This document shows positions 1,599 to 62,836 of a stretch of DNA of 64,000 nucleotides, in pieces (positions within the stretch are counted from its first letter, which is position 1; each line of letters begins with the position of its first letter). A program made the position numbers and the translations under genes. A model generated the notes under the pieces. The model had not been told where the DNA came from. It ran no database searches and saw only the letters and a program-made list of their open reading frames with translations. Origin of the DNA: an uncultured Chloroflexia bacterium (GTDB lineage Bacteria; Chloroflexota; Dehalococcoidia; UBA2979); NCBI GenBank assembly GCA_963728205.1, contig CAVSIV010000001.1, positions 512,001-576,000 on the forward strand, in the 5' to 3' direction.

Positions 1599-2033
1599 CT
1601 ACCAGGCGGAGCGCGAGCCGGCGCTCGCCGGCTGCAGCTCCTTCTCGAGCACGATGTCGCCCTCGGGGAGGTAGCCCGCCTCCGCGGCGAGCGCCAGGCC
1701 GGCGGTGTTCTGCTGGTTGATCTCGAGGTAGATGCGCCGCGCGCCGCTCGCGCGCAGATGCGCCTCGCCGGCGTTCATCAGCTGCCGACCCAGCCCCGAG
1801 CGGCGCCGGTCCGCGGCGACGGCCACGTGGTAGATGTACGCGCGCCAGCCGTCGAAGGTCGCGACCACGGTGCCGACGATGCGGTCGGCGTCCTGGGCGA
1901 CGAGCACGAGGTTGTACGGCCCATCGACCAGCGCCTCCCACTCGTCGTCCTGGGTGCGTTCGAGGCCGGCCTCCTCCCAGAGCGCGAGCACGCGTGCGCG
2001 GTCGCGGCGCTCGGCGCGGCGAAACACGGCCAT
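1599..2033 (-). CDS. GNAT family N-acetyltransferase (YpeA-like)
   Basis: FDGWRAYIYHVAV..DRRRSGLGRQLM acetyl-CoA binding motif; N..G..L...AGY; GGAGG RBS. Confidence 0.88.
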   Translation of the reverse strand: MAVFRRAERRDRARVLALWEEAGLERTQDDEWEALVDGPYNLVLVAQDADRIVGTVVATFDGWRAYIYHVAVAADRRRSGLGRQLMNAGEAHLRASGARRIYLEINQQNTAGLALAAEAGYLPEGDIVLEKELQPASAGSRSAW

Positions 2034-2096
2034 GGTGGTCCTCCCTCAGGGCGCGCGCCGAACGTAGCACGTGCCCCGCGCCCGGGACGCAGGGCG

Positions 2097-3008
2097 TCAG
2101 CCCTGCGCCGCGCGCTCCTTCTCGTGGTCGGCAAGCGTCTTGCCCGCGGCCCACATCGGCTGCGCGCCCTCGAGGCTCGTGATCTGCGACCACTGCTCCT
2201 GGATCCACTCGGCGTCCCTGGGCTCGCCCAGGCCCGGCTGCACCCCGGGGCCCTTCACCAGCACCGCGCGATTGAAGTTGCCCGCGCCCGCCTCGATCAC
2301 GAGGCCGCTGTCGGTGTTCGCCTCCGAGGCCATGTAGACGACCGCCGGCACGACGTACTCCGGCTTCAGCCGCTCCACCATCTCCGGGGTCATGACCGTG
2401 GCGGTGAGCCGCGTGCCGGCGACCGGCGCCACCGTGTTCACCATCACGTTGTACTTCGCGCCCTCCTGCTTGAGGACGTTCATCAGGCCGAGCATCGACG
2501 TCTTCGCCGCGCCGTAGTTCGCCTGGCCGAACTGGCCCCAGATGCCGGACGACGAGCTCGTGAGCACGACGCGCCCGTACGACTGCTGCCGGAACACCGG
2601 CCACGCGTGGCGCAGGATGTCGAACGCGCCCTTGGCGTGGACCGCGAAGATCGCGTCCCAGTCGTTCTCGTCCATGTTGTGCATCGCCTTGTCGCGCAGG
2701 ATGCCGGCGTTGCAGATCACGACGTCGAGGCGGCCCCACTTGTCGATGGCGCCGCGCACCATCTCGAGGCCGTCGTCGTAGCTCGAGACGCTGCCGAAGT
2801 TCGCGATCGCCTCGCCGCCGGCCGCGGTGATCTCGTCGACGACCTTCTGCGCGGGCGCGGCGTCCTCGCCGCGGCCGGCGGGGTCGCCGCCGAGGTCGTT
2901 CACGACGACGCGCGCGCCGCGCTTCGCGAGGTCGAGCGCGTAGGCGCGGCCGAGGCCCTGCCCGGCGCCGGTGACGAGCGCGACCCGTCCTTCGAATGAG
3001 ATGGCCAT
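2097..3008 (-). CDS. SDR oxidoreductase (MFE-2-like 3-hydroxyacyl-CoA dehydrogenase)
   Basis: TGAGQGLG, VVVNDLG, NAGILRDK and YGAAK catalytic motifs; GGAGGA RBS before ATG 3008. Confidence 0.92.
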   Translation of the reverse strand: MAISFEGRVALVTGAGQGLGRAYALDLAKRGARVVVNDLGGDPAGRGEDAAPAQKVVDEITAAGGEAIANFGSVSSYDDGLEMVRGAIDKWGRLDVVICNAGILRDKAMHNMDENDWDAIFAVHAKGAFDILRHAWPVFRQQSYGRVVLTSSSSGIWGQFGQANYGAAKTSMLGLMNVLKQEGAKYNVMVNTVAPVAGTRLTATVMTPEMVERLKPEYVVPAVVYMASEANTDSGLVIEAGAGNFNRAVLVKGPGVQPGLGEPRDAEWIQEQWSQITSLEGAQPMWAAGKTLADHEKERAAQG

Positions 3009-3116
3009 GAAGCATCCTCCGTCGTCTGAGCGACCAGCTGGTGGCGCGTGGATGGTCGGGGCGTGCACCCATTCTGACCGCGCAAACGGGCTGGCGCGAG
3101 CGGGTGGACGGGGGGA

Positions 3117-4028
3117 TCAGGCGGGCGGCGGCAGGTGTCGCTTCGCGATCCGACAGGCGACCGTGTACGCGGGGTCGAACACGTTGCCGATGTCGTACTC
3201 GACGCACTGGCCGAGCAGGTGGCTCGCCACGGCCGCGTCGATGCGGTAGTCCACCTCGAGCCAGCGCAGCAGCTCAGACGTCGCGTGTTGCAGCGCCTGC
3301 TCGAGCGGCCGCGCGTTGCCGAGCGCGAACAGATGCTCCGCCGTCTCGCCGCGCGGCCAACCGGGGGCCGCGCCCTTGCGGACATCGACCGTCAGCGCGA
3401 CGTCCATCGAGATCTCGACGCCGGTGCCGACGATCTCGCCCTCGCCCTGCACGGCGTGGCCGTCGCCGAGGTGCAGCAGCGCGCCGGGCGCGAAGACGGG
3501 GAAGAAGAGCGTGGCGCCGGGCTCGACGCCGGGGTAGTCCATGTTGCCGCCGTACGGGCCGGAGGTCGCGGTCGAGATCGCCTGGCCGTGGGCGGGCGCC
3601 ACGCCGAGGCAGCCGAGCATCGGCCGCAGCGCGACCGCGATCACCGGCAGCGCCTCGTGCGCCGTGCGCAGGCGGGCGACGTTGCGCTCGACGTCCACCT
3701 CCCAGTCGATGCGCCCGCGCTCGGGCAGGCGCGGCACGTCGGGCGGGTCCACGACGTGCGGGGCGATGGCGGTGCTCGTGAAGCCGTGCGCGCGGTTCGG
3801 GACGACGTCGTCGATGCGCACGACGAGCGCGTCGCCGGGCTCGGCGCCCTCGACGAAGAACGGACCCGTGAGCGGGTTGCCGGGCTCGGTGACGGGCTCG
3901 CCGAGGCGGTCGGCGCCGCCGGCGTCGACGGTCGTGGTGACGATGGTGTCGCCGGGTCGGACGCGCAGGACGGGCTCGTGGGAGCCGAACGTGCGGTGGT
4001 AGCGGGTGGGCTGGAAGCGGTGTTCCAT
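3117..4028 (-). CDS. Acetamidase/formamidase family protein
   Basis: NPLTGPFFVEGAEPGD, GGNMD and GDGHAVQGEGE motifs. Confidence 0.92.
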   Translation of the reverse strand: MEHRFQPTRYHRTFGSHEPVLRVRPGDTIVTTTVDAGGADRLGEPVTEPGNPLTGPFFVEGAEPGDALVVRIDDVVPNRAHGFTSTAIAPHVVDPPDVPRLPERGRIDWEVDVERNVARLRTAHEALPVIAVALRPMLGCLGVAPAHGQAISTATSGPYGGNMDYPGVEPGATLFFPVFAPGALLHLGDGHAVQGEGEIVGTGVEISMDVALTVDVRKGAAPGWPRGETAEHLFALGNARPLEQALQHATSELLRWLEVDYRIDAAVASHLLGQCVEYDIGNVFDPAYTVACRIAKRHLPPPA

Positions 4029-35200: not shown

Positions 35201-35654
35201 CATCGACTTCGTGGCCGGCGATCTGCAGCACGCGTTGGACGACCTGCGTGCGGTGCTCGCGGCGCTCGACATCTCGCCGCTGCTCGATGAGCTCGACGGC
35301 ATCCACGGCGAGGTCGTGTCGGTGGTCGAGGAGACGCGGCCGTCGACGCTGCTCTCGAGCCTCGGCGCCACGCTCGCGACGGTGCAGGGCATCGTCTCGA
35401 GCGTGAACCCGCGCACGGCGCTGGGCGGGCCGCTGTCCGACGCGTGGAGCGCGGTGGAGGACGCGCTCGCCGGCGTCGACTTCTCGGTGCTGCTGCAGCC
35501 GCTGATCGACAAGCTCGACGAGCTCGAGGCGGCGTTCCGCGCCGCGCTCCAGCGCGTCGAGTCGGCGTTCGACGCGATGCTCAGCGCCGGCCGCGGCGCG
35601 CTCGCCGGGGGCGGCGGCGCCGGTGCCGCCGCGGGGGCAGGGGTGTCGCTGTGA
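32223..35654 (+). CDS. Tape-measure-like alpha-helical repeat protein (1143 aa)
   Basis: All-helical amphipathic sequence with recurring LxPxxLLxPL motifs; position between tube and baseplate genes; GAGGAG RBS. Confidence 0.6.
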   Translation: MPDGTLTVSLNDLQGALSGVVGLLGEADASGGGTKFAGAANVASAAPGDQVQQFGATFTAQAQGALSFDPGAIDQATTLLTQLQSQPGVPTDALDHFVERLTTAGDAFGGDLVGHIEGALTAIRGLSGGIPTDRTAVVSALLDQILSVIGALDGPEAAQIRAWAQSVQEMLRLVGPLIEQASAAGDPSSIAVAVSRRALESALEVFGFPQVQRLLTLFDEFPLNALPSAQLDATGGALTTVSAGYTALAGLASAPYPQFRDQAVALAADMEALRVALRPVLGGIRRVADAPILQPGALEAFLRQHIDEALGVQVTEAQRIDDPFQALFDRIDAAIDGIDLSAVRDSVLGFFEQTRSAIEQLDVPSLADTLATQLQAVDGVIGDLESGVTGTLDEVRSFFDDATAQVHTLAEQVGSFAGDGSFHFDAEAQLRGALVAARTAIGGDPANPSAPSVRGTLEQFRDTLDGFLGQINTLLGGVAGEIDGVRSAAVDGVNAFRDFVTGLDLPGKVETLRDQVQAILDQLGPIDFSAVVDPVVEGINDNTGKLRDIDTSSLNELLRQALAAALDVVISIDFTADISAPLDEEFQAAKDAAAQPVAELQRRYEDAVAQLDQLSPTQLLEGLFHAFDTIDAAVGSLDLTNLLAPLDALHTQYLVDPVAALKPSTLLQPVVDAQRAVVDQFASIDPAALIAPLTGQLDAFKSQVAAFDVAQPVEDLRQAVAKVRSDIGDLHPSDLLQPLVDDFARLEGLLDQLSPSVLMAPAAQLATPLLALLDRADEALITALHDLFQAPLAALDRLRPSTLAQELSDKLNQVIAAIRGMNLASRFNQLKGAHFDLMASVQAGGSQAHLGLVMILDPQRQLGAIVDAHNALLTRLEQIRDALVFPDLEPLFEQVQTRMLAMLPPYARELLDRDTFLRVMRLADPTRFLGELDTRFQALKDKLIPIRPADIAAELDASYNALLAVVDGLDIDAALGRITDTLNRIKGVVAGVRIDFVAGDLQHALDDLRAVLAALDISPLLDELDGIHGEVVSVVEETRPSTLLSSLGATLATVQGIVSSVNPRTALGGPLSDAWSAVEDALAGVDFSVLLQPLIDKLDELEAAFRAALQRVESAFDAMLSAGRGALAGGGGAGAAAGAGVSL

Positions 35655-35673
35655 TGTCGCGGGAGGTGCGCTC

Positions 35674-38600
35674 GTGGCTGACGTGACCACCACCGTGCAC
35701 GTGCGCGTGTCCGCGTTCGACCCCGCGCAGCGCGCGCTGATCCCCGTGCCCGGTGCCGGCGTGCTCGTGGAGGATCGCGGCTGGCTGTGGGACCCCGATC
35801 TCTCGACGGGCAGCGACACCACGGACGCGTCGGGGCTCGTCGCGATCCCCATCACCTACGACGACGCCGGCGCCGACAAGCTCAACCCGTACTTCACGGT
35901 GAGCGTCCCCGCGGGCGTGCGGTCGGTGCCGGCCGGCGCCGACGCCGATCACACGTTCACGCTGCCCGACGAGTGGCAGACCCGCCACTACGTGACGCGG
36001 CGCGCGCGCAACATCCTCGACCACGCCGATCCGGGCAGCCCGCTCGAGATCTTCGTCGGCCTCCCGGCTCACCTGCGCGTCGCCTACTCGGACTTCGACG
36101 CCTCCGGCCGGCGCAACCCGTTCGCGCTGCCCGAGCACACCGCGCGCGTCCACCTCGCGGACTACGACACCTTCCTCTTCATCGACTTCCTCAACCCGGA
36201 CGACACGCTCACGGGCGTCGGCTACGACATCCCGGGCGACCGCATCGTCCCGGCCGGCGATCACGACGCGTACCCGTACTGCGACCTCTGGCCGACGGCG
36301 CCCTGCGCGCTCGACGGCGACCCGGGCCCCGATCCGCGCGCCTGGACCGACCCGCCGCGCTCACCGGTCGGCACGCTCGGCGGCGGCAGCTTCGACGCCG
36401 TCGGGCCGGTCGCGGTCGACGGGCACGGGTTCGTGTTCATGGTCGACGGCGGCGTCGTGCGCCGCTTCTACCCCGACGGCACGCTCTGCGAGACGATCCC
36501 GGCGCCGCCGTCCGGCGCGTTCAGCACGCCCGGCGGGCTCGCGCTCGATCGGAACCGCACGCTTTTCGTCGCGGACACCGGCAACGATCGCGTCGTCGTC
36601 TACACGCCCGACTGGCTCGACGGCGGCAGCGGGCGCTACGTCCACCTCACCGACGTCGGCAGCACGGGCACCGGCCCCCGCCAGTTCGATCACCCGGCGG
36701 GCCTGTGCGTGGTGCCGAACCGCGTGGTCGACGGCGCCGAGCTGCTCGCGGTCGCGGACCCCGGGAACCATCGCGTGCAGGTCTTCGGCATCGACGTTCT
36801 CGGCGCCGACTCCTCCGCGTCCCTGCAGGCGCAGCGCGCATTCTCGGTCGGCCTCTCGTTCGTCACGCAGTTCGGCGCCGCCGGCTCGGGCGCCGGCCAG
36901 TTCCAGGAGCCGGTCGGCGTATCGGCCGATCGCGATCGACGGCTGTTCGTCTGCGACCGGCAGCTGCACCGCGTGTCGCGCTGGACGCCGAACGGGAGTG
37001 CGACCACCTACACGCACGACGTCGACTGGGAGAAGAGCGGCGGCGGCAGCGGCGGTGGAGACGGCGAGTTCGACACCCCCGAGGGGATCGCCGTCGACGT
37101 GAAGAACCGCACCGTGTACGTCGCGGAGTCGGGCAACGGGCGCGTGCAGCGGCTCGACGCCGACTCGGGTGCGCACCTCGTGCACTGGATCGACGCCGAC
37201 ATCGCGGCGCTGGCCGGCGCGCTGGTCCCGCGCGGCGTCGCGGCGGACGCGCGCGGCGACGTCTACGTCGCCGACGGCGGGAACGGCCGCGTGGTGCGCG
37301 CTACGCCATTCGACCTCGACGGCACCCCGCGCGCCGACGGCGACGCGCCGCGCGTCGTGGCCTCGCCGTGGACGCCGCGCACCGAGCCCGACCACATGCG
37401 CGGGCCGGCGTACGTCGCCTTCGCGCCCGACGGCGCGCTGTGGGTGTCGGACACCGGGAACGATCGCGTGCTCGTCTACGCCCTGCACGAGGCCGCCCCG
37501 CCGGACGCGCCGGTCGTGGTGACGGACGGGCTCGCGCAGCCGGCCGGCATCGCGTTCGCTCCGGACGGCGCCGCGTTCGTGGTCGACGCCGGCAACGACC
37601 GCGTGCTCCCGTTCGACGCGTCGCGGGCGCCGCAGACCGCGCTCGGCGCGTCGGGCTCGGGCGCCGGCCAGTTCAGCCACCCGGCCGGCGTCGCATATGC
37701 GCAGCGCGCGACGCCGCTCCTGCTCGTCGCCGACCGCGGGAACGATCGCGTGCAGGTGCTCCAGGCGGACGGCACGTTCCTCGCGCCGATCACCACCGAC
37801 GGCACCACGGCGCTCTCCGCGCCGGAGGACGTCGCGGTCAACGACGCCGGGCAGGTGTTCGTCGCCGACACGGCGAACGGCCGGATCGTCCGCTTCGCCC
37901 TGCAGGCGGACGGCACCACGGTATTCGAGCGCGCCTTCCCGGTGCCGTCTCGCGCGGTGCCGGTCGTCGCGCCGTCGCCGTCGGGGGTCGCGTGGGGGCC
38001 GGACGGGTTCCTGCTCGTCACCGACCGCGCGCAGGAGATGGTGTTCCGGCTCAGCGCCGACGGGGATCTCGACGCGCACTGGGACCTCCGCGCGCTGCTC
38101 GGCCTGAGCGCCGGCAGCGGCGGCGCCCCCGACGTCATCTACCGGCCGGAGCTGGCGCGCCAGGTGCTGCTGTCCGCGCCCGCGCGCGCGGTGCTCAACG
38201 ACCGCGGGGTGATGGCGATCGCCGACGCCGGCCACGACCGGGTGCGGCTCGTGCGCGTCTTCAGCGACATCCGTGTCGAGCTCTTCGACCTCGGCGAAGG
38301 GCTGCCCGACATCTCGCTGCGCGCGATCACGAAGAACGACTGGCGCGCCGATCTCGGGCTGGAGCTCAACGTCGGCGACGTCAGCATCTTCGACGAGTCC
38401 CAGGATTTCGAGACGGAGCCCGAGGACGATTTCTCGGGTGACCGCTACGAGCGGTGGGAGGTGATCCGCGAGCGCAACGGATCGAACGCCGCGATCAACG
38501 TGATGCGGCTCGTCCGGCTCGTCCAGACCTGGTACCGCGAGCAGACGCGGCAGGATGACGCGGATCACCGCTGGGGCACCTCCGATCACGCGCGCACGCT

Positions 38601-39882
38601 CAACGTCGACCTGATCGCGAGCGAGGGGAGCTACCAGTTCCTCGACGTGAACATGGGCGAGCGGTCGCCCGACGGGCGGGGCTCCGACGCGTGGGACGAT
38701 CCCGTGGTCGCGCACGAGATGACGCACTGGGTCTTCTTCAAGGCGCTCGAGCCGTACCCGCCGTTCACGCTCGTCGGTCTCATCGACATCGGCCACTCGC
38801 ACACCGCCTCCACCATCAGCTCGTTCAACCAGGCGCTGACCGAGGGCTGGGCGAACTACGTCGAGCTGTTCTGGGGTTCGGAGTTCAGCAGCACCGACCG
38901 CGTCCGCGGCTTCCCGATGGCGCCCGCGCAGGGACTGACCGGGCTCGTGCCGCGCAGCAGCACCGCGTGGCGGCATCTCTTCGGCGGCTCGACCGCCACG
39001 ACGCTGCCGTCGTTCGACGACCCGGAGCGCGGCCTCGAGAACGAGGGGTACTTCGCGAACACGCTCTACCAGCTGCACCGCGCGCTGACGGACCCGGGCG
39101 TCGTCTTCGCGGACTCTCCGGCCTACTGGCACCACTTCAACACGCACGTCACCGACGCCGCCTCCGAGCGCTACGCGAACACGATCTGGGAGGCGCTGCG
39201 GCGCTTCGACCCCGACCCGCCGACGGCGGATCTCGATCACGGAACGGCCGTCTACCTGCGCAACGTGCTTGCGCAGTTCCACGCGAAACAGTCGGCGTTC
39301 GCGGAAATCGCGCAGTCGATCTTCGCGCTCAACAACCAGCTGATGCCCCTCATCGCGATCACCGAGGGCACGTCGACCACGACGCCGGGGACCGCGATCG
39401 GCCCCACCGTGACGCTCGCACCCGGCGACACGCGCGACCTGATCATCCAGGTGACGGATGCCACCGGCGCCCCGCTCGCCGCGCACAACCTGCACCTGGT
39501 CGTGGGCGACACCGCGCGCTACGCGCTCGTCGGCGGGCCGCCCCCGATCCACCACGGTCGGCGTCGCCCCGCGAGCGCTCCGCCGAGCACGACGGACCTG
39601 TACCGCGCCACGAACGTCAACGGGATCGTCCGCGTGCAGTTCACGGCGCCCGCGTTGCCGAGTGGCGCGACGAGCCTGACCGACACGCTGCGCGTCGAAT
39701 ACCAGCCCGACTTCGACACCGATGCGACCTTCGATCCCCCGGAGAAGGGCGACGACCGCGAGACGACGCTGCGCCGCCTCTACCTCTACGAGCTGCGCGG
39801 TGCCGCGAAGACGTGGGCCGGCGCCGGTCAGAACTTCGGCGCCACGGTCTCGACCACGCTCACGTTCGAGGTGTCGTCGTGA
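35674..39882 (+). CDS. NHL-repeat beta-propeller protein with gluzincin-type metalloprotease domain
   Basis: Many NHL repeats (F..P.G.AVD...VYVAD.GN.RVQ); VVAHEMTH (38713) and LTEGWANY (~38840); GGAGGT RBS before GTG 35674. Confidence 0.8.
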   Translation: MADVTTTVHVRVSAFDPAQRALIPVPGAGVLVEDRGWLWDPDLSTGSDTTDASGLVAIPITYDDAGADKLNPYFTVSVPAGVRSVPAGADADHTFTLPDEWQTRHYVTRRARNILDHADPGSPLEIFVGLPAHLRVAYSDFDASGRRNPFALPEHTARVHLADYDTFLFIDFLNPDDTLTGVGYDIPGDRIVPAGDHDAYPYCDLWPTAPCALDGDPGPDPRAWTDPPRSPVGTLGGGSFDAVGPVAVDGHGFVFMVDGGVVRRFYPDGTLCETIPAPPSGAFSTPGGLALDRNRTLFVADTGNDRVVVYTPDWLDGGSGRYVHLTDVGSTGTGPRQFDHPAGLCVVPNRVVDGAELLAVADPGNHRVQVFGIDVLGADSSASLQAQRAFSVGLSFVTQFGAAGSGAGQFQEPVGVSADRDRRLFVCDRQLHRVSRWTPNGSATTYTHDVDWEKSGGGSGGGDGEFDTPEGIAVDVKNRTVYVAESGNGRVQRLDADSGAHLVHWIDADIAALAGALVPRGVAADARGDVYVADGGNGRVVRATPFDLDGTPRADGDAPRVVASPWTPRTEPDHMRGPAYVAFAPDGALWVSDTGNDRVLVYALHEAAPPDAPVVVTDGLAQPAGIAFAPDGAAFVVDAGNDRVLPFDASRAPQTALGASGSGAGQFSHPAGVAYAQRATPLLLVADRGNDRVQVLQADGTFLAPITTDGTTALSAPEDVAVNDAGQVFVADTANGRIVRFALQADGTTVFERAFPVPSRAVPVVAPSPSGVAWGPDGFLLVTDRAQEMVFRLSADGDLDAHWDLRALLGLSAGSGGAPDVIYRPELARQVLLSAPARAVLNDRGVMAIADAGHDRVRLVRVFSDIRVELFDLGEGLPDISLRAITKNDWRADLGLELNVGDVSIFDESQDFETEPEDDFSGDRYERWEVIRERNGSNAAINVMRLVRLVQTWYREQTRQDDADHRWGTSDHARTLNVDLIASEGSYQFLDVNMGERSPDGRGSDAWDDPVVAHEMTHWVFFKALEPYPPFTLVGLIDIGHSHTASTISSFNQALTEGWANYVELFWGSEFSSTDRVRGFPMAPAQGLTGLVPRSSTAWRHLFGGSTATTLPSFDDPERGLENEGYFANTLYQLHRALTDPGVVFADSPAYWHHFNTHVTDAASERYANTIWEALRRFDPDPPTADLDHGTAVYLRNVLAQFHAKQSAFAEIAQSIFALNNQLMPLIAITEGTSTTTPGTAIGPTVTLAPGDTRDLIIQVTDATGAPLAAHNLHLVVGDTARYALVGGPPPIHHGRRRPASAPPSTTDLYRATNVNGIVRVQFTAPALPSGATSLTDTLRVEYQPDFDTDATFDPPEKGDDRETTLRRLYLYELRGAAKTWAGAGQNFGATVSTTLTFEVSS

Positions 39883-53172: not shown

Positions 53173-53274
53173 CTGCAGTGACGCGCGGGGGCGCGCGGCG
53201 ACGGAGAACGACGCCGAGCGCGGGCGGCACGCGATGCCGCGAGTGTGCGGCCGGGTGGGTGGGAGTCGCGGGGC

Positions 53275-56200
53275 ATGCCCTACATCACGCTGGGACGCGA
53301 GGTCGTGCGCGGCACGATCTCGCGCGATCACTGGCGCGCCGACGTCACCCTGATGTGCTCCGACCGCTTCCCGGCCGGCGCCGCCGCGCGCCTCTTCGTC
53401 GAGATCCGCTGGCGCGCCCGCCGCGACGAGGGCGACGTCCCGGGGCTCCCGGAGGACGCGAAGCCGATCGTGCTCACGCTGCGCAAGCGCACGGCCGCCG
53501 CGACGGGGGACGTCCGGTTCGACGCCCGCGACGGGGCGACCACCCGCGGGTTCGTCGGCGACACCCGCGCGCTGCTCACGCTCTTCGCGCAGGCTCCCAC
53601 GAGCGGCGCAGAGCCCGACGTCGTGCTCGAGGTGCGCATCGAGGGCGACGTGGCCGGGAGCGTCCCGCTCTCGGTCGACGGCGGTGCCGCCGCGCCGGCG
53701 ACCGCCGTCGTCCTCCACGACGACACCGGCGCGGCGCCGGCGCACGACATCGTGCTGCACGAGGCGACCGTCGCGCTGCGCGCGGCGGCCGCGCCGGTCG
53801 CGCCGGGCGCCTTCCGCTGGGTGAGCGTGCGGCCGGACGCGCTCCCGCTCAGCGGCGGGCCGGAGGGCGAGCGGGTCGAGGTGCGCGGCGCGCTCGTGAG
53901 CGACGCCGTGGGCGACGCGCCGGTCTGCGTGCTGTTCACCCCTCGCGACGGCGGTCCGGCCGTGATGGCCGTCCACGCGGTCACCGTCGCGGAGACGCGG
54001 GTGCTTCTGGGCGACAGCGGCGAGGTGCCCGCGCCCGACCTGATCGGGGTCGGCGCCGGCGAGACCTTCCGCGCCGTGACGCGGCCGCCCGCGCTGGCGC
54101 AGGCGGTGTCGTGGCGCTTCGCCGCCGGGGCCGAGCGCACCCGCGTCGCCGGGCGCTCCGACCTTGCCGCCGCGCGGATCGAGGGGGTCCGCGCGAGCGC
54201 GGCCATGCACGACGTGCAGGCCGTCGCGACGATCGCGACGGGGCACGTGCCGGCGTCGCTCGCCGTGACGCATGACCTCACGGTGACGTCGGTGGTCGTG
54301 GTGCGCGCGGACGGGAGCGGGCTACCGGCGTTCGTGAACCTCGGGGAGACGGTGCCGGTGCTGGCGCGCGTCACGCCCGACGCGCTCGCTCGCGATGTCG
54401 CCTGGGCGGTGGTGCCGGGGCTCGGGAGCGCGGCCCGGGCGCGCGTGCAGCCCGTCGCGGGCGCGGACCGCGCGCGCAGCGCCGAGCTCGCGCCTGCGGC
54501 GTCCAGCGCCATCGACGCTCGCGACGACATCCGCCTCACTGCCGGCCTCGCCGGCGCCGACGGCGCGACGGTGGCGTCGACGGTCGTGTCCCACCCGTTC
54601 ACCGTGACGCTCGTCCGGCCGCTGCATCTCGCGGTGCCGCCGGCCGACCTCGCGACGTGGACGCTCCAGCAGGCGTACGGCCCGGGGACCGCCGGGGCGG
54701 CGTTCCACGACCGCGCGCTGTTGCGCACGACGGGTGCCGGGCGCGTCATCGCCGCCGCCGACGGGACGCTCTCGACGCATCCGCCCGGGGTCGGCGTGGC
54801 CGCGCCGCCCGACCCGGCGACGCCGGCCGGGCCGCCGCCGCCGGCGGTAACCCTCTACCTGCACCTGGCGCCGGCGATCCGGGACCGCGCCACCGGTTTC
54901 CACGCCCGCGCGGCGGGCCTCAACGGCGTCGCCGGCTTCGTGTACGACCACCTCGAGACGGCGTCGCTCGAGGCGGCGCTCGGCGATCTGCTCGACCGCG
55001 CCGAGGGCCCGGTCGCCGGGCTGGGCCGCGCGGAGCGCGTCGCGCTCCTGGTCGCCGGGCAGGCGACGGTCCCCGTCACGGGTGGCCACGCACTCGGTGC
55101 CGCCTCGCCGGACGGCGCCCCGGCCGGCCGCCGCGATCTCGGTCTGGGCGTGCTCGCCGACGACGGCGCCATCGACCCCGCGTTCGCGTACGACTGGATG
55201 CGCGACTTCGTCGCCGACGGCCAGCCTGCCGTGGACGCCTTTCTCGCCCTTGTGCCGCGCGGGTGGCCCGTCATTGACCCAACGCTCACGGTCGACCACG
55301 CGATCGACCTCACCGGCGACGCGCTCTACCCGATGGCCGTGCTCGCCGACCTCCGCCGGCGGTACGCGCTTACGACCGCGCAGTGGCGCACCGTCGGCGA
55401 CAATCAGAAGGCGCTCTGGCGGCGTCGGCTGCTGCGTCGCGCCGGGTTCGCGCCGGCCGGGGACACCGCGCCGCCGTTCGAGTTCGACGATCGCGACTGG
55501 CAGAACCTGTTTCAGCTGGAGGCGCTCGTCGAGTTCTACGTGAACTTCGACGACCCGCATCGGCCGCCGCCCCTCGTGGCCGGGGAGAACGAGCCGCGCC
55601 CCCCGCTGGAGGCTGACGGCGTGACGCCGACCCCGGGGTACCGGGCCATCGACCTCACCGGGGGCTGGCACATCGTCGTCGTCGACGCCTTCGGCGGGCG
55701 GCTGGCGGGCGCCGCGGCGACCGTCGCCGGCTCCGTCGTCACGCTCGACGGCGCGCCGGATCTCCGGCGCGTCAATCCCGGGTTCGACACCATCTACCTG
55801 CCGGGCGACCACGAGCGGCCGGGCGCAACCTACCGGGTCGCCGCCGCGAACCACGCCGCGTCGACGGTCACCGTCGACGGCGCCCCCGACTTCGCCGGCG
55901 GCACGTCGGCGTGGCACCTCCCGGCCGGCGTGAGCGGCGAGCTCCCCGCGCTCGCGTACAACCTCGGCCCGGGCGGGGCGCGAGGGTTCGACCACTACGA
56001 CGCGGCGCTCTTCGTCGTGAAGGACGGCGCCGTTCACGCGAAGTTCCGCTGGTCGAGCTACACGTCGCGCAACTACGCCGCCGGCAGCCAGCTCCTCTCG
56101 TCGCTGCGCGGCAACCGGCAGTACGACTTCGCGAGCTTCCGGTCGAACAGCGCCTTCATCAACTACGCGTTCAGCGTCGTCGACCACGGCGCCGCGTACG

Positions 56201-56604
56201 ACGGGGTGCGCGAGGCGCGCTTCTACTTCGCGACCCCGGTCACGGCCGACGCGGCCGCGCCGGGCGCGAATCCGAACGGCGGCGGCAAGACGCTGATCCG
56301 CATTCACAACGGCAACCACGGCAACCTCGCGCCCGGCGCGGCCGCGGCCGGCGGGACGGGATCGGCCGGGTGCATCGTGTCGCCGTCGTTCTACGACTTT
56401 CGCGACGTGATGATCACGCTCTTCCAGGCGGACCGGGTTGCCGCCGCCGGTGCGCCGGATCCGCACGTCGCGCAGCTGCAGGGCGCGGGCTCGGTGGCGA
56501 GCGGGGCACTGCTCGCCGCGAACACCGTCACCGCCGCGCAGTGGAACAACCGGCTCACCGGATCGTTCTGGGCGATCCGGCCGGACGAGCGGCCGCTCGG
56601 ATAG
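53275..56604 (+). CDS. Putative CIS cargo/accessory protein A: shared N-terminal module, Ig-like repeats, C-terminal YkuD/Tlde1-like domain
   Basis: N-terminus homologous to the 56707 gene; C-terminal LIRIHNG...GSAGCIV matches the L,D-transpeptidase H...S.GC motif. Confidence 0.65.
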   Translation: MPYITLGREVVRGTISRDHWRADVTLMCSDRFPAGAAARLFVEIRWRARRDEGDVPGLPEDAKPIVLTLRKRTAAATGDVRFDARDGATTRGFVGDTRALLTLFAQAPTSGAEPDVVLEVRIEGDVAGSVPLSVDGGAAAPATAVVLHDDTGAAPAHDIVLHEATVALRAAAAPVAPGAFRWVSVRPDALPLSGGPEGERVEVRGALVSDAVGDAPVCVLFTPRDGGPAVMAVHAVTVAETRVLLGDSGEVPAPDLIGVGAGETFRAVTRPPALAQAVSWRFAAGAERTRVAGRSDLAAARIEGVRASAAMHDVQAVATIATGHVPASLAVTHDLTVTSVVVVRADGSGLPAFVNLGETVPVLARVTPDALARDVAWAVVPGLGSAARARVQPVAGADRARSAELAPAASSAIDARDDIRLTAGLAGADGATVASTVVSHPFTVTLVRPLHLAVPPADLATWTLQQAYGPGTAGAAFHDRALLRTTGAGRVIAAADGTLSTHPPGVGVAAPPDPATPAGPPPPAVTLYLHLAPAIRDRATGFHARAAGLNGVAGFVYDHLETASLEAALGDLLDRAEGPVAGLGRAERVALLVAGQATVPVTGGHALGAASPDGAPAGRRDLGLGVLADDGAIDPAFAYDWMRDFVADGQPAVDAFLALVPRGWPVIDPTLTVDHAIDLTGDALYPMAVLADLRRRYALTTAQWRTVGDNQKALWRRRLLRRAGFAPAGDTAPPFEFDDRDWQNLFQLEALVEFYVNFDDPHRPPPLVAGENEPRPPLEADGVTPTPGYRAIDLTGGWHIVVVDAFGGRLAGAAATVAGSVVTLDGAPDLRRVNPGFDTIYLPGDHERPGATYRVAAANHAASTVTVDGAPDFAGGTSAWHLPAGVSGELPALAYNLGPGGARGFDHYDAALFVVKDGAVHAKFRWSSYTSRNYAAGSQLLSSLRGNRQYDFASFRSNSAFINYAFSVVDHGAAYDGVREARFYFATPVTADAAAPGANPNGGGKTLIRIHNGNHGNLAPGAAAAGGTGSAGCIVSPSFYDFRDVMITLFQADRVAAAGAPDPHVAQLQGAGSVASGALLAANTVTAAQWNNRLTGSFWAIRPDERPLG

Positions 56605-56706
56605 CCGGCCGCGCCTCGGCGCGCGTGCGCCGGGCCACGCGACGCCCGGGCGCGGCTATCCTGTGCCGAGGCCGGTCGTGATCCAGTGCAGGGTGAGGAG
56701 CGCGAC

Positions 56707-59700
56707 GTGGCCTACCGTCCGCACGCCGGCAGGAAGATCGTGCGGACGACGCTGACCCGCGACGACTGGGTCGCCAGCGTGACGCTCGCCTGCTCCGATC
56801 GCATTGCGGTCGGCGCGTCGTCGCCGCTCTTCGTCGAGGTGGCGTACCGCCACGAGCCCGCGCCGGGCGCCGACAGCGGCCACCCGGTCGATCTCACGTT
56901 CCGCTCGCTCGCCGCGGGCGGGGGCGAGATCCGGTTCGACGCCGCCGACGGCCCGACGACGCGACGCTTCGTCCGGCATGTCCGCACGGTGCTCACGCTC
57001 GTGGGCGTGACCGCCACCGCCGGCGCCGAGGCCGGCGTTGCGATCGATATCGCGATCGACGGGACCGTGAAGGAGAGCGTCCCCCTGTTCGTCGGCGCGC
57101 CGCTCGGCACGCTCGCGATCCGGGCCGCCGACGGCACGGCCGACGCGCCCGCGGAGGTCACGCTCGGCCAGACGCTGCCGCTGCGCGCCGTGCCCGACCC
57201 CGCCGCGCAGGGGACGTATCGCTGGATCGTCGTGACCGAGGACTCGCTCGCGGCCCACGGCGCGACCGACGCGGCCGCCGTCGTGCTCGGCGTGACCGGC
57301 GGCGCCGCGCTGCCCCGCACGGTGGGCTGCCTGTTCTCCCCGCCCGACGACGGTCCGCAGGTGTTCACGGTGCGCGCATTCGGCGTCCGCGCGACGCTGC
57401 TCGTCCGCACCCGCCTCGTCGGCACCGCCCCGGCACCGCTGGACGACGCCTGGGTGTACGTCCGCGACGGCGGCACGACCGTCGTGCTGCACACCGACCG
57501 CCGCGGCCGCGCGCGCTCCGCGCCCACCGGTTCCGAGCGCGCGGCGTCGTGGCTCTATACCGAGCCCTTCGGCGCGACCGCCGGCCACCCCGTGGAGATT
57601 GCCTTCAGCCGCGGCCGGAAGCCGATTCCCGACACACTCGTGCAGGCCGAGCTCGCGTTCCGGCGGCTCGACGTCGCGGCGGAAACCGCCGACGGCGACC
57701 TGGTCGGCGCGGTCACGATCCCGGAGACGCCGCTCGCGTTGACCCGACCGGGCGAGCTCACGATCTGGCCGTTGCTGCGCGAGCTGCCCGTGGACGCCTC
57801 GCTCACCGCCGGCCTCAACCAGGGCGCGGCGCTCTACGACGCGCACGGCAACCTCACGGAGCCCGAGGGCACGGTGGCGGCGCCGCCGCCGGCGAGGCCG
57901 CGCGAACGCGGGCTGGTCGTGGCGGGCACGGTCGATGCCGGCGCGACCGGCGCGCGCGTCCGGCTGATGCGCGACGACGGCACCGCGCTGCCGCTGCACG
58001 CCGGGTTCGCCGCCGCCGCGTCGGTGCTGGAGCTGCCCGCGACGATGGGCGCTCCGGCCGGGGCGACGCGGCCGTTCTCGGCGCTCATCGTGCTCGACGA
58101 CGCGGCCGCCGCATTCGGGCCGGTGCTGATCGTGGTGGACACCGTCGGGATCGCCCCGCCGCGCGTCGACGCCTTCGCGGTCCAGCTCTGCGGCGTGCAG
58201 CTCGCACTCGTCGACGACGCCGTCGCCGCCGCCGACGGCACACACGCCGGCCCGGTCCCCGGCGAGCCCGACGAGCTGAACACGATCGACTTCGGCCTGT
58301 CGCCGCAGGACAACCGCAACGACCTCACGCTCCAGGCGCGCGCGCGGCGCATGGTGAACTACGACATCCGCACGGGGACGCGCGCGTTCGACGAGACGGC
58401 GGCCGTCGGCCCCGGCAACCCGAACGTGCCAAAGCCGCAGATGCCGCTGTGGATGGGCGAGTGCCAGCTCGTCGGGATCGGGTGGGCGGATCTGCAATCG
58501 CTGATGCGCCACCGCGTGGCCTGGGTCAGCCGTGCGCCCGCGTGGTCGACGCTGGAGCTCAATCTCTCATGGCGGATCGAGCTGCGCTGGGACGGACCCG
58601 ACGTCAACTCGCCCACGTTCGCCGGACCGCCAGAGCTCATCCTGCGGTCGGGGCAGACCTACCAGTACAGCCTCGCGCTCGGCGGCGATGCGGCGCTCCG
58701 GGTTCCGTTCGACGCGCAGGGACGCCCTCTCGACGCCACCGGGGCGCCGCAGGCGCTGGATCACGGGGCGGTGCCGGCGCCGTTCACCGCCGCCCCGGCG
58801 CGCATCGCGTACCCGGTTGCCGCGCGACGGCTGCCGCGCCTCGTCGTGCAGGGCGAGCAGCGTGCGTGGGGACGGCAGGCCGGCGCCCCCCGGCGGGACT
58901 CCGTGATCGTCGAGTTCCAGCCCCGCGTCGAGGCCGGCGGCAGCGAGGCGATCCGCGGCGGAGATGGGGATCTCGCGCTGCAGAGCCTGCAGATCGATGG
59001 CGCCGCCGCCCCGCCGGGGCTCGAGCCGGACGGCGGCGGGGCGCCGGTCGCGCCCGCGGACGTGCGGCCGGCGCGCGTGCCGACGTTTCGCGTGCGCGGC
59101 ACCAACCCGGCGGCGCACGCCGCGGTCGAGCAGCTGATCGACGCGCTCGTGCGCCAGTACCACGACGCGCACGCTGCCGAGGCGCGCATCGCCACGCTCC
59201 CGCTCGCCGTCTGGCAGGAGACGGTGCGGCTGATCCTCGCGCACGAGAACGGCAACGACCGCCAGTTCTTCGACAACGCGAGCGGCCGCTACGCGTTCGC
59301 GTCGCGCGGCACGACCTTCTACTACGGGCACGAGCACCGCATGCCGTTGTTCGGCCCGCCGCACGGCTACGGGTTCGGGCAGCTCGACTTCGTGTTCGGC
59401 CGCGCCGCGAACGACGACGAGGTCTGGAGCTTCGTCGAGAACATCCAATCCGCGGTGCGGGTCGTGATGGAGGAGAAGGCCGCGGCCGCCTACCACGACA
59501 TGCACGGGCACTTCGCCGCGCCGGTCTCGCGGCGCGACCGGGCCGCGTACCGCCGCGAGGTCGTGCGGCGCTACAACGGCGGCACGGAGTTCCACTGGAA
59601 CGGCGCGGACTGGGAGATCCAGCCGGGCCTCGCGCAGTGGGCCAACGCGCACGATCACACGCAGGGGCCGAACCAGCGGCTGCGATACCCGCGACCGCGT

Positions 59701-59812
59701 GCTCGGCACCCACGTCGCCTACTACAACCCGTATCCGGCCGGCGCGGGGGCGGCGACGACGTTTCCGTGGCCGATCGCGTTCGCGGTCGGCCAGTTCGGC
59801 CCGGGGATCTGA
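56707..59812 (+). CDS. Putative CIS cargo/accessory protein B: shared N-terminal module, C-terminal lysozyme-like domain; apparent +1 frameshift near 59691
   Basis: ILAHE...QF, GYGFGQL, W....NI..A and RRYNGG lysozyme/SLT-like motifs; the corrected frame reads YP/DRVLGTHVAYYNPY...FGPGI* with stop at 59810-12, just before a convergent gene. Confidence 0.65.
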
Positions 59813-59834
59813 GGGCGGCGCGGCGGGTCGGCGA

Positions 59835-60191
59835 TCAGCGGATGTGGATGTCCCGCCCGCCGCTGATGTTGATGTTCGTCTTGCCGTGCTGCACCACGTT
59901 GCCGCTGCCGCTCACGCTGATCGCCACCTGCTCGGCGTCGCGCGCGAGGGCGGGGTCGGCCGCCAGCGCGTGCTCGATGGCGGAGCGAATGCGCGGCTCG
60001 TCGTCCTCGTCCGTGCGCGTCTCAGCGCTCGCGCCGGCGGCGCCGCGGATGCGGTCCCAGAGCACCCCGAGCACATGCGCGCCGGCGTCGCCGACCCGTT
60101 CGGCGAGCTCGTCGCGCACCCGTTCCGCCGGGCGCCGTGCGAATGTCAGCAGGAGCGGCGCCAGCGCCGCCGCGATCTCGGCGATTCCCAT
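59835..60191 (-). CDS. Bell-like small helical protein with C-terminal putative amyloid motif
   Basis: N-terminal hydrophobic helix, LWDRIR, ALAADPALA, then SVSGSGNVVQHGKTNINISGGRDIHIR; GAGAGG upstream. Confidence 0.65.
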   Translation of the reverse strand: MGIAEIAAALAPLLLTFARRPAERVRDELAERVGDAGAHVLGVLWDRIRGAAGASAETRTDEDDEPRIRSAIEHALAADPALARDAEQVAISVSGSGNVVQHGKTNINISGGRDIHIR

Positions 60192-60225
60192 GTCGCACCC
60201 CTCTCTCGGCCCATGCGGCGCCGGC

Positions 60226-60738
60226 TCAGTCCAGCGGCGAGCGTCCGCGCGCACGGCGTCCCGCCACCGACCGCGGATTGACGAGCGCGCGCACGAGCGA
60301 GCCGACCACCATCACGACGAAGCCCGCGAAGAACAACGCGCCGCCCACCGCGATACCCGGCGGGAAGCCGTCGGCCGCATCGCCGTGTGGCAGGGTGAAC
60401 AGCGTGTAGCCGAAGACCGCGAACCCCGACAACACGAGCAGGACACCCACGGTCACGATCGCGATGTAGAGCCGCGAGGGTGGCGGGTCGGGCTCGTCGA
60501 GCGCGGCGCGGATCGCCTTCGCGAGCGTCTCCGCGCTCGGCCCCTGGTAGTAGAGGTCGCCGATGCGGATGCCGCGCCCGCCGCTGATGTCGACGTTGTA
60601 GCGGCCGACCTGCACCTGGTTGTCGTCGCCGCGCACGGCGATCAGCGACCGGAGCCGATCGATGTCCGTGTCGCTGCTGCGGCCCGCCGCGATCCGGTCG
60701 AAGAGCGTGGCGAGTTCCGGGTCGACACCGTTTGCCAC
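60226..60738 (-). CDS. EAD10-like N-terminal domain + two transmembrane helices
   Basis: EL..LFDRIAAG....DIDRLR.L....VQVGRYNVDISGGRGIRIGD..YQ, followed by two hydrophobic helices. Confidence 0.65.
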   Translation of the reverse strand: MANGVDPELATLFDRIAAGRSSDTDIDRLRSLIAVRGDDNQVQVGRYNVDISGGRGIRIGDLYYQGPSAETLAKAIRAALDEPDPPPSRLYIAIVTVGVLLVLSGFAVFGYTLFTLPHGDAADGFPPGIAVGGALFFAGFVVMVVGSLVRALVNPRSVAGRRARGRSPLD

Positions 60739-61050
60739 GGCAGCATCCCGTTCCCCGGCTCCAGGGGTTCATCATAACGAATGGTGCGCCCTCCGGGCCG
60801 AGGCCGTGCTCCGAAGGCCCGAGGCGCTGAGGAGTTCTCGCGACGGTTGCTCGGAGCAAGGGGCCGCGCGCCCTGCGCAGCGGGAGAGGGGACGCGCGCG
60901 TCCTGTGCGGTCGTGGTCCGTGTGGCGGCAGGAAGGGTGAAGGGAACAGCATCCGCGGACTTCGCGCGAGGTCGCATGCCGCGCTCCATCATGGTGGCCT
61001 CCAGACGGACTTCCTGGAGGGGCTCGAGCGCCCGTTGCGCAGCTCGCCCG

Positions 61051-61943
61051 CTAAACGAGGATCGATGCGGTCAGACAGTGGAGGGAGCCACCGAGCTTGC
61101 GGGTTGGGGACGCGATGAACGTCGGCCGGAACCCGTGCTCGCGCAGCGCCGCTTCCACGATGCGCCGGTCGTCGGACGGCGTGATGTCGTAGGTCGGCAC
61201 GAGCACATGGTCCCCGATCTGCACCCAGTTGAGCGGGCTTGCGTACCCGTCGCCGTCCGAGCGCAGGGGGAGCCGGATGATCTCGAGGGCGGCGAGGGCG
61301 TTCCGCAGCAGCGCTTCGATCGCGTGGCTCACGTGCCGGTCGGCGGTGTTCGCCGGCGGCCAGCCGACGGCGGCGACGTCGTCGCGCAGGAAGCGCACGT
61401 AGATGTCCGCGTGGCCGCTTGGCTCGCGCGCGAACGGTGGAAACACCAGCCAGCGCCGAATGCCGAGGGCCGGCGCATGCGCGTCGAGCGCCGGGCGGTC
61501 GAGCGCATTGTCGATCAGCACGGTTGCCGTCGAGAGCGCGACGCCGGCGGGACCGGCGACGACATTGCCATGTGCCAGCACGAGTGCGCACGGCTCCATC
61601 TCCCACGTGCTGATCTTCGCGAACACGCCGTCGTCGCCCGCGCGCCCGAAGTCGGGCAGACGAGGGAGAACCCACCGGATCTCCCCCGATGCGTCGTCGC
61701 GCAGCGGGATCGGCGAGCGATCGCGAATCCACGGGTGTCGTACGACGCCCCGAGAATGGAGAAGCGCTCCGGTTGGGCCTGTTTCGCGACGAACGCGCGA
61801 GCCCGGGCCGGGTCGGGCGTGATGAGGATGACCCCGACGTCGCGGGATGCCTCGACGGCGACGCGGCGGAGGAGCGGGAGCAACTCAGTCTCCGCGAACG
61901 GGACCATGAGCGCCGCCGGCTCAGCGTAGTCGGGCACGATCAC
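61051..61943 (-). CDS. Agmatine/peptidylarginine deiminase family protein with an apparent -1 frameshift near 61733
   Basis: YDT/WIRDRSP, GHADIYVRF, NW.....VLVPTY and GGSLHCLT catalytic motifs; GTGA overlap with the upstream gene. Confidence 0.8.
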
Positions 61944-62389
61944 TCGGCCGCCGTTGCCCGCTGCACCGAGCCGGCCGTCCGGATCACGGTCGCCGGGTCG
62001 CCGGACTTCCGGATGAGCGCCATCGCGCAGACCGTCGCGCCATCTCCGGGCTCGACCGTGCCGCGGCCGACGGTCTCGCCGACCACCTCCCAGTCCTCCC
62101 CCGCGAGCGGCGAGCATGGGAGCACCTCGCCGCCCATCGCGATCGCGCGCGAGTCGTGATCGGTGAGCTTCACGCTAGTCGCGACCACAGCTCCGTCCGG
62201 ACACCACCCCGTCGGGCCACCCACCGCCACGGATCGGGCGTCGAGAGCCGCGGCAGCGCTGATACCCCAGCGTCCCGGGACACGCTGCGCCGCCTGCACC
62301 GTCGGGTCGACGAGCCCGGCGACCGACATGGACGCGAACGCCCCGGTCGCCGCGGCGAGGCTCGCGGCGATGCGCTTCGCCCTGTTCAT
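61940..62389 (-). CDS. Secreted Cys-containing small protein (paralog family)
   Basis: Signal-peptide-like N-terminus; C...C...W...VCA.A pattern; AGGAGGAG RBS. Confidence 0.7.
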   Translation of the reverse strand: MNRAKRIAASLAAATGAFASMSVAGLVDPTVQAAQRVPGRWGISAAAALDARSVAVGGPTGWCPDGAVVATSVKLTDHDSRAIAMGGEVLPCSPLAGEDWEVVGETVGRGTVEPGDGATVCAMALIRKSGDPATVIRTAGSVQRATAAE

Positions 62390-62836
62390 GCGGACTCCTC
62401 CTCTCCGGCCAGATCCTCGGCCGACCGCGCTCTCGAGCGTGGGCCCGGCCGGGATACGACGAGGACCACGTCCGAGGTCAACCCTGTCCGGTCGGTCGTG
62501 GGTCGCGAACCATGCATCAAGGTCGCCGCGAGCGCGCGTCCCCCCTCGGCGTCACCGCGAAATCCGTCACGGGCCTCGCACCGCGACGCACCTCGAGACG
62601 CCACCGGGAGCGGTTGCCGTCGCCGCTCCTCCCCCCTCCCCCCCGACGCCGTTGGCCCTGGACGGCGGCCTCGCCGGGTCGCAGGGAACCGAAGTCGGGG
62701 ACGCCGGGCCGCGGCGCCGGAGATCGGGCGCACGTCCGACGCGGGCGGCAGCTCCTTCTGACAACTTGACGGGGGGCGCCGCGCGGCGCGTACCCTCGCC
62801 GCCGTTTCCAGGGACGCGAGTCGAAAGGGGTCGTGC

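Follow-up and report, generated by a model that had tools for sequence, protein, structure and literature searches.

At positions 59835-60738 of the stretch G000:C1:512001-576000 (64,000 nucleotides from an uncultured Chloroflexia bacterium; the whole stretch is called the window below), two small adjacent genes encode the same short motif, and the locus raises the question of what such a motif would couple when one of its carriers is a membrane protein and not a NOD-like receptor (NLR). The window belongs to a 4.1-Mb assembly of 6 contigs (completeness 89%, contamination 5.6%). The initial annotation had described the two genes as a putative amyloid-signalling pair, made up of a Bell-like effector and a membrane protein, and had suggested that they might be linked to particle release by the contractile injection system (CIS) encoded next to them. 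On balance, we lean towards reading the two genes as a self-contained, NLR-less signalling pair of the EAD10/BASS11 type with a membrane protein as the partner (BASS, bacterial amyloid signalling sequence). The shared EAD10-core motif, the Bell-like layout and the non-NLR membrane partner proposed in that annotation have held up, and the pair is conserved; the link to the CIS was not supported, and co-variation of the motifs was not seen. The coupling between the membrane protein and the Bell-like executioner would most likely be of the amyloid type, or at least homotypic, by analogy with the systems discussed below.

Both open reading frames (ORFs) lie on the minus strand, where they had been placed as co-oriented neighbours. 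Gene A (60226-60738) starts with GTG and encodes 170 aa, in which an EAD10 domain is followed by a proline-rich linker and a hairpin module with two transmembrane helices (2TM). Gene B (59835-60191) starts with ATG and encodes 118 aa, with a Bell/Babybell-like helical domain followed by a C-terminal EAD10 beta-core. The spacer of 34 nt between the gene A stop and the gene B start (60192-60225, minus strand) contains a Shine-Dalgarno-like GAGAGGGG at 60198-60205, which was read from the sequence and is located 6 nt 5′ of the gene B ATG. An alternative GTG start at 60254 would extend gene B to 139 aa. The GC content of the window is 74%, and DNA of this kind gives long spurious ORFs in every frame; with signs of two frameshifts close by, it could be argued that the ORFs are spurious and that the repeat between them arose by chance or from the composition of high-GC DNA. 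We give this explanation next to no credence and regard it as already effectively refuted by the full-length homologues of both ORFs in independent metagenomes and genomes, the coding-type GC content at third codon positions (0.90 for both frames), the match of gene A to Pfam EAD10 (E 1.2e-16) and the shuffling control of the shared motif described next. In addition, genes A and B align end to end with their homologues despite the nearby frame problems. The two ORFs are confirmed as real genes with a real shared motif.

The motif common to genes A and B is 28 residues long. In gene A the beta-core is found at residues 39-61 (DNQVQVGRYNVDISGGRGIRIGD; 60556-60624, minus strand), where 65% of the residues are N, Q, G, V or I and where K, P and L are absent. 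In gene B the motif forms the C-terminus at residues 91-118 (ISVSGSGNVVQHGKTNINISGGRDIHIR; 59838-59921, minus strand) and corresponds to positions 31-57 of the EAD10 profile. The motif strings given in the initial annotation were exact (gene A residues 40-61 and gene B residues 98-118). At the DNA level the gene B copy is one half of an 85-nt direct repeat (59838-59922 versus 60559-60643, 74% identity). The Smith-Waterman score of A against B was 82, which was reached by 0/2000 shuffles in either direction (mean 30, sd 5, max 62); BLASTP of gene A against gene B with default filters gave no alignment. When the family profiles of A and B were compared, hhalign gave a probability of 98% (E 3e-13), with high per-column confidence only across the beta-core of about 28 residues. 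Across the motifs of A and B, 63-65% of the residues are N, Q, G, V or I, while K, P and L together occur no more than once, and the same compositional bias has been reported for BASS motifs (Dyrka 2020, bioRxiv 10.1101/2020.01.06.895854; here and below, statements on published work refer to the accessible portions of the papers cited). The arrangement is also that of a BASS pair, in which a motif of about 25 residues is found both in the C-terminus of the Bell-type protein and in the N-terminus of the adjacent product, and the same layout is seen in a second locus (L009) from a metagenome.

Gene A matches Pfam EAD10 (PF19954), an alpha+beta profile of 77 positions with a gathering cut-off of 24.1 bits, at 60.9 bits. 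The domain covers residues 8-77 (60508-60717, minus strand) and profile positions 6-75. Similar EAD10 domains are found on Nostoc and Tolypothrix plasmids at the N-termini of NACHT/STAND NTPases and CHAT peptidases, whose genes are neighbours there in the canonical arrangement for effector-associated domains (EADs; Kaur 2020, PMC7159879). The first transmembrane helix (residues 90-114; 60397-60471, minus strand) has a Kyte-Doolittle peak of 2.53 in a 19-residue window, ends in a conserved FGYTLFT, and is conserved in the A family as well as in a family of fusion proteins of about 206 aa described below. The second helix (residues 128-149; 60292-60357, minus strand) is glycine-rich, contains FFAGF and is followed by a C-terminal tail with a charge of +5. 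An acidic loop of about 13 residues joins the two helices. The two hydrophobic segments, the short acidic loop and the +5 tail argue for an N-in/C-in hairpin, which would leave the EAD10 domain in the cytoplasm. The Pfam search of gene A gave no NTPase domain. Full-length homologues at 47-55% identity were found (P0012-P0015, P0017 and P0019). The partner is thus a membrane protein and not an NLR, as had been proposed.

The five-helix domain of gene B (residues 1-90; 59922-60191, minus strand) was delineated from an AlphaFold2 model and from hhalign comparisons to Bell-like relatives. In the model (mean pLDDT 70.4, pTM 0.59), the predicted helices span residues 3-19, 22-33, 35-57, 64-78 and 80-94, and the tail from residue 96 to 118 is predicted to be disordered (pLDDT <50). 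Helix 1 (60135-60185, minus strand) is hydrophobic and includes E5; its mean Kyte-Doolittle value is 1.86 over residues 1-17, which falls under the threshold for a transmembrane segment in a 19-residue window. With five predicted helices within residues 3-94 of 118, the modelled protein has the size of a Bell/Babybell protein (a five-helix domain of about 80-100 aa in a total of about 110-140 aa), and its layout is the one that Dyrka 2020 gives for Bell proteins. The start of the protein, MGIAEIAAALAPLLL, has its acidic residue at position 5, compared to position 2-3 in the 'MEPIS'-type start of Bell proteins, and relatives begin with MDPVTIA (P0004, P0098), MGPVEVA (P0099) or MDPVSLAG (L022-L024). 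The prediction that the small protein would be Bell/HeLo-like agrees with the five predicted helices, the hydrophobic helix 1 and the disordered C-terminal motif.

A HMMER search with gene B against 1.84 billion representatives gave 10 proteins at E<=0.001. Six of these are small full-length relatives of 113-136 aa (P0002-P0007), and two others (P0009, P0010) have a similar helical part followed by other G/N-rich C-terminal tails, which suggests that motifs have been swapped on one executioner scaffold. EAD10 was matched at E<=1 by seven of nine members of the gene B family, the best at 6.8e-6. As judged from these alignments, what gene B carries is the EAD10 core and not the whole domain. Among the Atlas neighbours of gene B there is a cluster (score 0.92) with HetE-N in 11% of its members. 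A word-based homologue search for gene B and a tblastn search of plasmids found no homologue, and NCBIfam gave nothing useful for the pair.

The closest experimental precedent for the pair is Bab/Agp from E. coli ECOR25, an abortive-infection system (Ibarlosa 2024, bioRxiv 10.1101/2024.11.07.622273). In Bab, four helices cup a hydrophobic helix 1 and are followed by a C-terminal BASS11 motif. Agp is a TGP protein (TPR-GreA/B-C-PIN) with BASS11 at residues 2-25. BASS11 forms fibrils and transmissible foci, and Agp activates Bab through BASS11 during infection by T5. TGP proteins are headed by EAD10 (Kaur 2021, PMC8195603), and because this domain is N-terminal in them, the Agp motif would sit in an EAD10 context. 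Like Bab (109 aa), gene B encodes a small protein with five helices, of which helix 1 is hydrophobic. In contrast, the helical protein is paired here with a 170-aa 2TM protein whose EAD10 domain is complete, no sequence-level similarity of the helical domains to the solved BabyBass chain was found, and the locus lies outside a prophage or defence island.

The pair also resembles the Bell/NLR pairs that carry BASS1-10 (Dyrka 2020). In both, a helical protein of about 120 aa begins with a hydrophobic helix that contains an acidic residue (at position 5 in gene B and at position 2 in some of its relatives) and ends in a G/N/Q/V/I-rich motif that is matched in the neighbour, and the genes are collinear with a tiny spacer. 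The differences are that the neighbour here is without NB-ARC, NACHT or repeats, that the gene A motif is part of a larger domain in which an N-terminal helix precedes it, and that the motif is the EAD10 core and apparently none of BASS1-10. Partners described for proteins of the Bell type or for EAD10/BASS11 carriers include NLRs, TGP, TIR, CHAT and EAD7 proteins, and NLRs are the sole partners named for BASS in a 2026 review (PMC13506858). In the accessible portions of this literature there was no mention of a 2TM partner for either. The supplements contain no 'EAD10' text (Kaur 2020) or hold only profile-profile and phyletic tables (Kaur 2021).

EADs have been described as coupling adaptors that act by homotypic interaction, with EAD10 as a mixed alpha+beta domain (Kaur 2020, PMC7159879). 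A stable complex without amyloid would fit this description: a folded EAD10 would attach the helical protein to its 2TM partner, non-covalently rebuilding the single-chain protein of about 206 aa, and the product would be a constitutive membrane device, for example for sensing or regulation in envelope stress, with neither templating nor death. The fusion family shows that both modules also work as one chain, and the pair has no defence-island neighbours, both of which are in line with such a complex. Gene B, however, keeps only the beta-core (EAD10 positions 31-57), at its extreme C-terminus and in a region predicted to be disordered, and this is the layout of a BASS motif rather than of a folded domain. 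The composition of the motif also fits the BASS bias, and the motif acts as an amyloid in Bab/Agp, the closest characterised relative of the architecture. We therefore consider a stable adaptor complex unlikely.

In previously described EAD-coupled conflict systems, one EAD copy is always found on a core component, and EAD10 mainly recruits effectors (Kaur 2020). Such systems are exemplified by the EAD10-NACHT and EAD10-CHAT proteins of Nostoc sp. UHCC 0926 (plasmid pn3) and Tolypothrix sp. PCC 7712 (unnamed2), which share with the pair the N-terminal EAD10 of gene A and the adjacency of two carriers. The pair differs from the published conflict systems (PMC7159879, PMC8195603) in that neither a core NTPase nor any other core component was found, that one of the carriers contains no more than the beta-core, located at its C-terminus, and that what is attached is a 2TM hairpin in one protein and a Bell-like domain in the other, and not an enzyme. 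As an observation on the canonical loci themselves, the Nostoc plasmid (L011, 3343-11739) and the Tolypothrix plasmid (L012, 5986-8498) contain two EAD10-NTPase genes and an EAD10-CHAT gene beside a NACHT gene and a caspase-family gene; the EAD10-NTPase gene of L012 encodes 210 aa, stops soon past the P-loop and may be truncated, and is followed by a HigB/antitoxin pair.

With the Kaur rule and these plasmid loci in mind, the pair could be an orphan set of effectors whose sensor is encoded elsewhere, falls within the 11% of the genome that is unassembled, or has been lost. EAD10 was matched only twice in the 4.1-Mb genome, both times in the A/B pair, and the gene B family profile found only gene B itself and the gene A motif, leaving no third carrier in the assembled sequence. 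The genome gave no NB-ARC match and only sub-cut-off matches to NACHT, and no NTPase-like gene was found anywhere in the window or over the next 15 kb on its right side. Nor was one found in the 6-kb downstream flank of the L009 pair, and EAD10 scored above cut-off in 0/400 other genomes of the same class. Completeness of 89% leaves a sensor in the missing part conceivable, and on this evidence we find the orphan-effector explanation quite unlikely. Measured against the published descriptions, the adjacent-effector arrangement of Kaur 2020 is present, with adjacent co-oriented genes, the 34-nt spacer and the aligned cores. A core component (STAND, VMAP, GAP1, Ubl or TGP) with an EAD copy was not found in this 89%-complete genome, nor was the NLR partner of Dyrka 2020 (NB-ARC or NACHT with TPR or WD repeats), gene A being EAD10 plus 2TM.

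Several results weigh against a self-contained EAD10/BASS11-type pair. If one EAD copy must sit on a core NTPase, as in the Kaur rule, A and B would both be effectors without a sensor. Neither flank of the pair looks like a defence island, and PADLOC has no model for gene A or gene B. The 118-aa form of gene B reaches 23.7 bits against Pfam EAD10, at positions 31-57 only and under the cut-off that the 139-aa reading just passes at 24.2 bits. When the gene B model was compared to 48,161 PDB representative chains, 9h9v_A ('BabyBass soluble domain'), which had been anticipated as a target before the comparison, came 6th with a Z of 4.5 and an rmsd of 3.4 over 75 aligned of 85 residues; this Z lies within the noise band of helical bundles, and the fold match thus counts as suggestive only. 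A Foldseek search of the model against the PDB gave nothing at E<=0.001, profile searches of PDB sequences (alignments A1 and A5) gave only noise, with BabyBass not among the matches listed at E<=10, and neither Pfam HetE-N nor HeLo matched these proteins. The adjacency of A and B was directly seen in two loci only. The identity of the EAD10 beta-core with BASS11 is pieced together from Kaur 2021 and Ibarlosa 2024, and is stated in the accessible text of neither. Amyloid formation by the two motifs would likewise follow by analogy.

Two further points of this kind concern the motif itself. The core tetrad of RHIM motifs is I/V-Q-I/V-G, and the corresponding residues are VQVG in gene A and VQHG in gene B. 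Pfam RHIM (PF12721) was absent from the Pfam matches at E<=10. Of the likeness to EAD10 and to BASS3/RHIM that had been noted for the motif, the former was borne out by its position in the core of Pfam EAD10, and what is left of the latter is the gene A tetrad. Next, motif identity was 15-18/29 within pairs and 13-18/29 between pairs. As identity was no higher within pairs, the motifs of the A type and of the B type seem to form two lineages, each conserved, rather than to co-vary as partners, and the co-variation that the initial annotation had proposed to check was not seen. A match after 'ISGG' in two pairs (R/R versus H/H) was considered as a candidate for co-variation and failed across five pairs.

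The pair is conserved. In L009, on an unrelated metagenome contig, A′ precedes B′ as in the window, and 16 nt separate the two; A′ is 55% identical to gene A and matches EAD10 at 58.6 bits (E 6.2e-16), and the identity of B′ to gene B is 45%. The locus is flanked by an MFS transporter on one side and by amylase, ASRT and luciferase-like genes on the other, and no CIS gene, NTPase, lysin or third EAD10 was found in these flanks. Members of the A and B protein clusters could be matched by identical contig counts and identical longest contigs in four cases, which indicates co-residence indirectly and does not prove adjacency. These are P0012 (A) with P0099 (B), the L009 proteins themselves (2 contigs, longest 37079 bp); P0094 with P0100 (5 contigs, longest 7804 bp); P0095 with P0003 (1 contig, longest 26521 bp); and P0017 with P0098 (3 contigs, longest 9415 bp). 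The divergence of A and B was congruent, with one lineage pair at 84% in A versus 70% in B and the others at about 50% in both. The order in L009 supports the expectation that the genes are kept as neighbours.

The distribution of the pair is narrow. Gene A was found in 0/3 genomes of the same genus, and among 24 genomes of the same family there was no match in 23 and a marginal match (E 0.005) in one. Pattern scans for the A and B families in 185,579 species genomes found no relatives, with patterns so narrow that variants such as P0015 would be missed. A sequencing-run word search found no RNA run and only two soil-metagenome DNA runs with small word shares. An Rfam scan of 59000-62500 gave no match; promoter and terminator scans were also without a match and are uninformative at this GC content, and the composition profile of the window had no island signal.

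Relatives of both halves occur in other combinations. A profile search with gene A relatives found 82 proteins. Six clusters have the EAD10-2TM architecture, and the remaining matches belong mostly to the family of about 206 aa (around 60 full-length clusters), with some longer, shorter or truncated. In this family (MPIDGGLVVGYLTAALL..., alignment A5; e.g. P0016, P0001 and P0018) three parts are found in one chain: an N-terminal helical domain (MPIDGGLVVGYLTAALL...), a strongly conserved G/N/Q-rich motif (GGRQ..N.VYAQMNVQAFDHG.AVG.DFNYF), and a 2TM module of the gene A type with FGYTLFT, PxGI and FFxGF. The N-terminal domain aligned with gene B over 73 columns (hhalign 73%, E 3e-5, score 30.4), and this score was reached by 0/200 column-shuffled controls (mean 10.3, sd 2.2, max 18.7). 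The family thus has the same 2TM module and a helical domain homologous to that of gene B, and differs in being a single chain with another conserved motif where the EAD10 core would be. By these alignments, the helical domain and the 2TM module occur both as a fusion and, at the locus studied here, as a split pair with the EAD10 core on both halves. No Pfam family at cut-off and no name in the literature were found for the fusion family, and it was found in 0 of 400 genomes of the phylum. Some of its members are on contigs of up to 841 kb, and in the Atlas it is mostly from Actinomycetota, with RHIM/HetE-N clusters as weak leads (score 0.77).

A second combination was found in three genomes of the same bacterial family (L022-L024), which encode MDPVSLAG proteins of 140-146 aa. 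The protein from L022 aligned with the helical domain of gene B at an hhalign probability of 96.3% (E 1.9e-9). The C-terminal motif of these proteins, GG.N.GN(V/I)..(I/V)G.G, differs from the EAD10 core and recurs at the N-terminus of the adjacent protein, which has about 450 aa, a TPR match and no NTPase match. The MDPVSLAG and TPR genes lie at 1420-1860 and 47-1411 on the minus strand of L022 and at 1501-1923 and 1928-3283 on the plus strand of L023. In the two pairs tested, the motif match had Smith-Waterman scores of 81 and 79, which were reached by 0/1000 shuffles in each. Judged by their sequences, the MDPVSLAG and TPR genes look like another non-NLR pair of the amyloid-signalling type.

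The pair lies at the end of a plus-strand CIS locus with genes for a sheath (28287), a spike OB domain (39904), PAAR (41776), baseplate J (42679) and an amidase (52297). Many holins have two transmembrane helices. Gene A could accordingly be the holin of a lysis cassette for the CIS, with the small protein as its regulator and with lysis releasing the particles, and the position of the pair directly after the last CIS gene invites this explanation. The pair is, however, transcribed towards the CIS operon, on whose last gene it converges, and not along with it. The L009 copy is found among MFS-transporter, amylase, ASRT and luciferase-like genes and not among CIS or lysin genes, and here, too, the pair has no same-strand lysin as its neighbour. 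A PHROGs search at E<=1 gave no match for either protein, scans of IMG/VR viral contigs for the A, B and 206-aa families found none, and EAD10 is an adaptor family of conflict systems. A holin-like cassette is therefore highly improbable, and the convergent transcription together with the conserved L009 copy without CIS genes in its flanks leaves the suggested link to particle release without support. The last gene of the CIS locus was missing in all 40 relatives. Since it is missing there just as the pair is, the absence of the pair from these genomes says nothing about a link to the CIS.

The CIS locus has features of its own. Its terminal proteins (53245-56604 and 56686-59679, plus strand) have no Pfam match and are paralogous over their N-terminal 240 residues or so (43% identity), and a third copy of this region was found on contig 2 (G000:C2:466034-466732, 38% identity). 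A protein of 1419 aa with NHL/beta-propeller repeats is encoded between the CIS tube/sheath and spike genes (35623-39882, plus strand) and may be a cargo or fibre-like component. In the last gene of the locus, which starts at 56686 on the plus strand, the signal from third codon positions shifts frame near 59680 (59660-59813), as by a frameshift or an indel error. The shifted frame stops at a TGA at 59811-59813, and the original frame continues as a spurious ORF to 60777. On the other side of the pair, an ORF for a PAD_porph protein (agmatine-deiminase-like; 61051-61626, minus strand) covers only profile positions 126-318 of 321. A plausible N-terminal sequence for it is found upstream in another frame, to about 62100, which may be a second frameshift within 2 kb. 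Such disruptions of frame close to the pair point to indel errors in the assembly.

How the self-contained EAD10/BASS11-type pair would work can be outlined from these comparisons. Gene A would be a small inner-membrane protein with its EAD10 domain facing the cytoplasm and anchored by the two-helix hairpin, and gene B would be a soluble five-helix protein with a hydrophobic helix 1 and an unstructured tail formed by the EAD10 beta-core. The common core would associate the two homotypically, most probably through cooperative amyloid-like templating as for BASS11 of Bab/Agp. Clustering or a conformational change of the gene A protein would nucleate the motif, and the nucleated motif would convert the gene B tail, release helix 1 and thereby damage the membrane. 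The outcome would be regulated cell death, as in abortive infection. This outcome, the trigger and the direction of signalling are what we infer from the parallels and not from the locus itself.

A bolder proposal, possible and at present on the doubtful side, is that the pair belongs to an NLR-independent branch of amyloid signalling that is nucleated at the membrane, in which the 2TM module itself senses or nucleates, the 206-aa family is the single-chain form and the pair is the split form. Perturbation of the envelope or membrane, for instance by phage genome injection, a pore-forming attack or depolarisation, might cluster the conserved 2TM module (FGYTLFT/PxGI/FFxGF). A templating fold would then be adopted by the EAD10 core in the cytoplasm, which would in turn convert the Bell-like executioner. 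The split pair would then be held together solely by the templating motif. PGRP-LC spans the membrane. Its signalling to Imd through cRHIM motifs in Drosophila (PMC13506858) and the fungal HET-S/NWD2 system offer an analogy, in that a receptor with a short amyloid motif templates a downstream protein. There is no homology to either, and a eukaryotic receptor with a ligand-binding ectodomain is compared here to an outside loop of about 13 residues. If a membrane-nucleated branch exists, it would be a bacterial counterpart of such signalling from a membrane receptor to an amyloid.

A biological role for amyloid-type signalling in bacteria has been established only recently, through Bab/Agp. The pair would draw attention to two protein families that lack a name, one being the helical family of gene B and the other the 206-aa fusion family, and it warns of exceptions to the rule that one EAD copy is carried by a core NTPase. 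If the reading of a self-contained signalling pair is true, the two proteins would offer a minimal system of fewer than 300 residues in which to study how nucleation is triggered, and a short templating motif could wire an executioner to the membrane itself.

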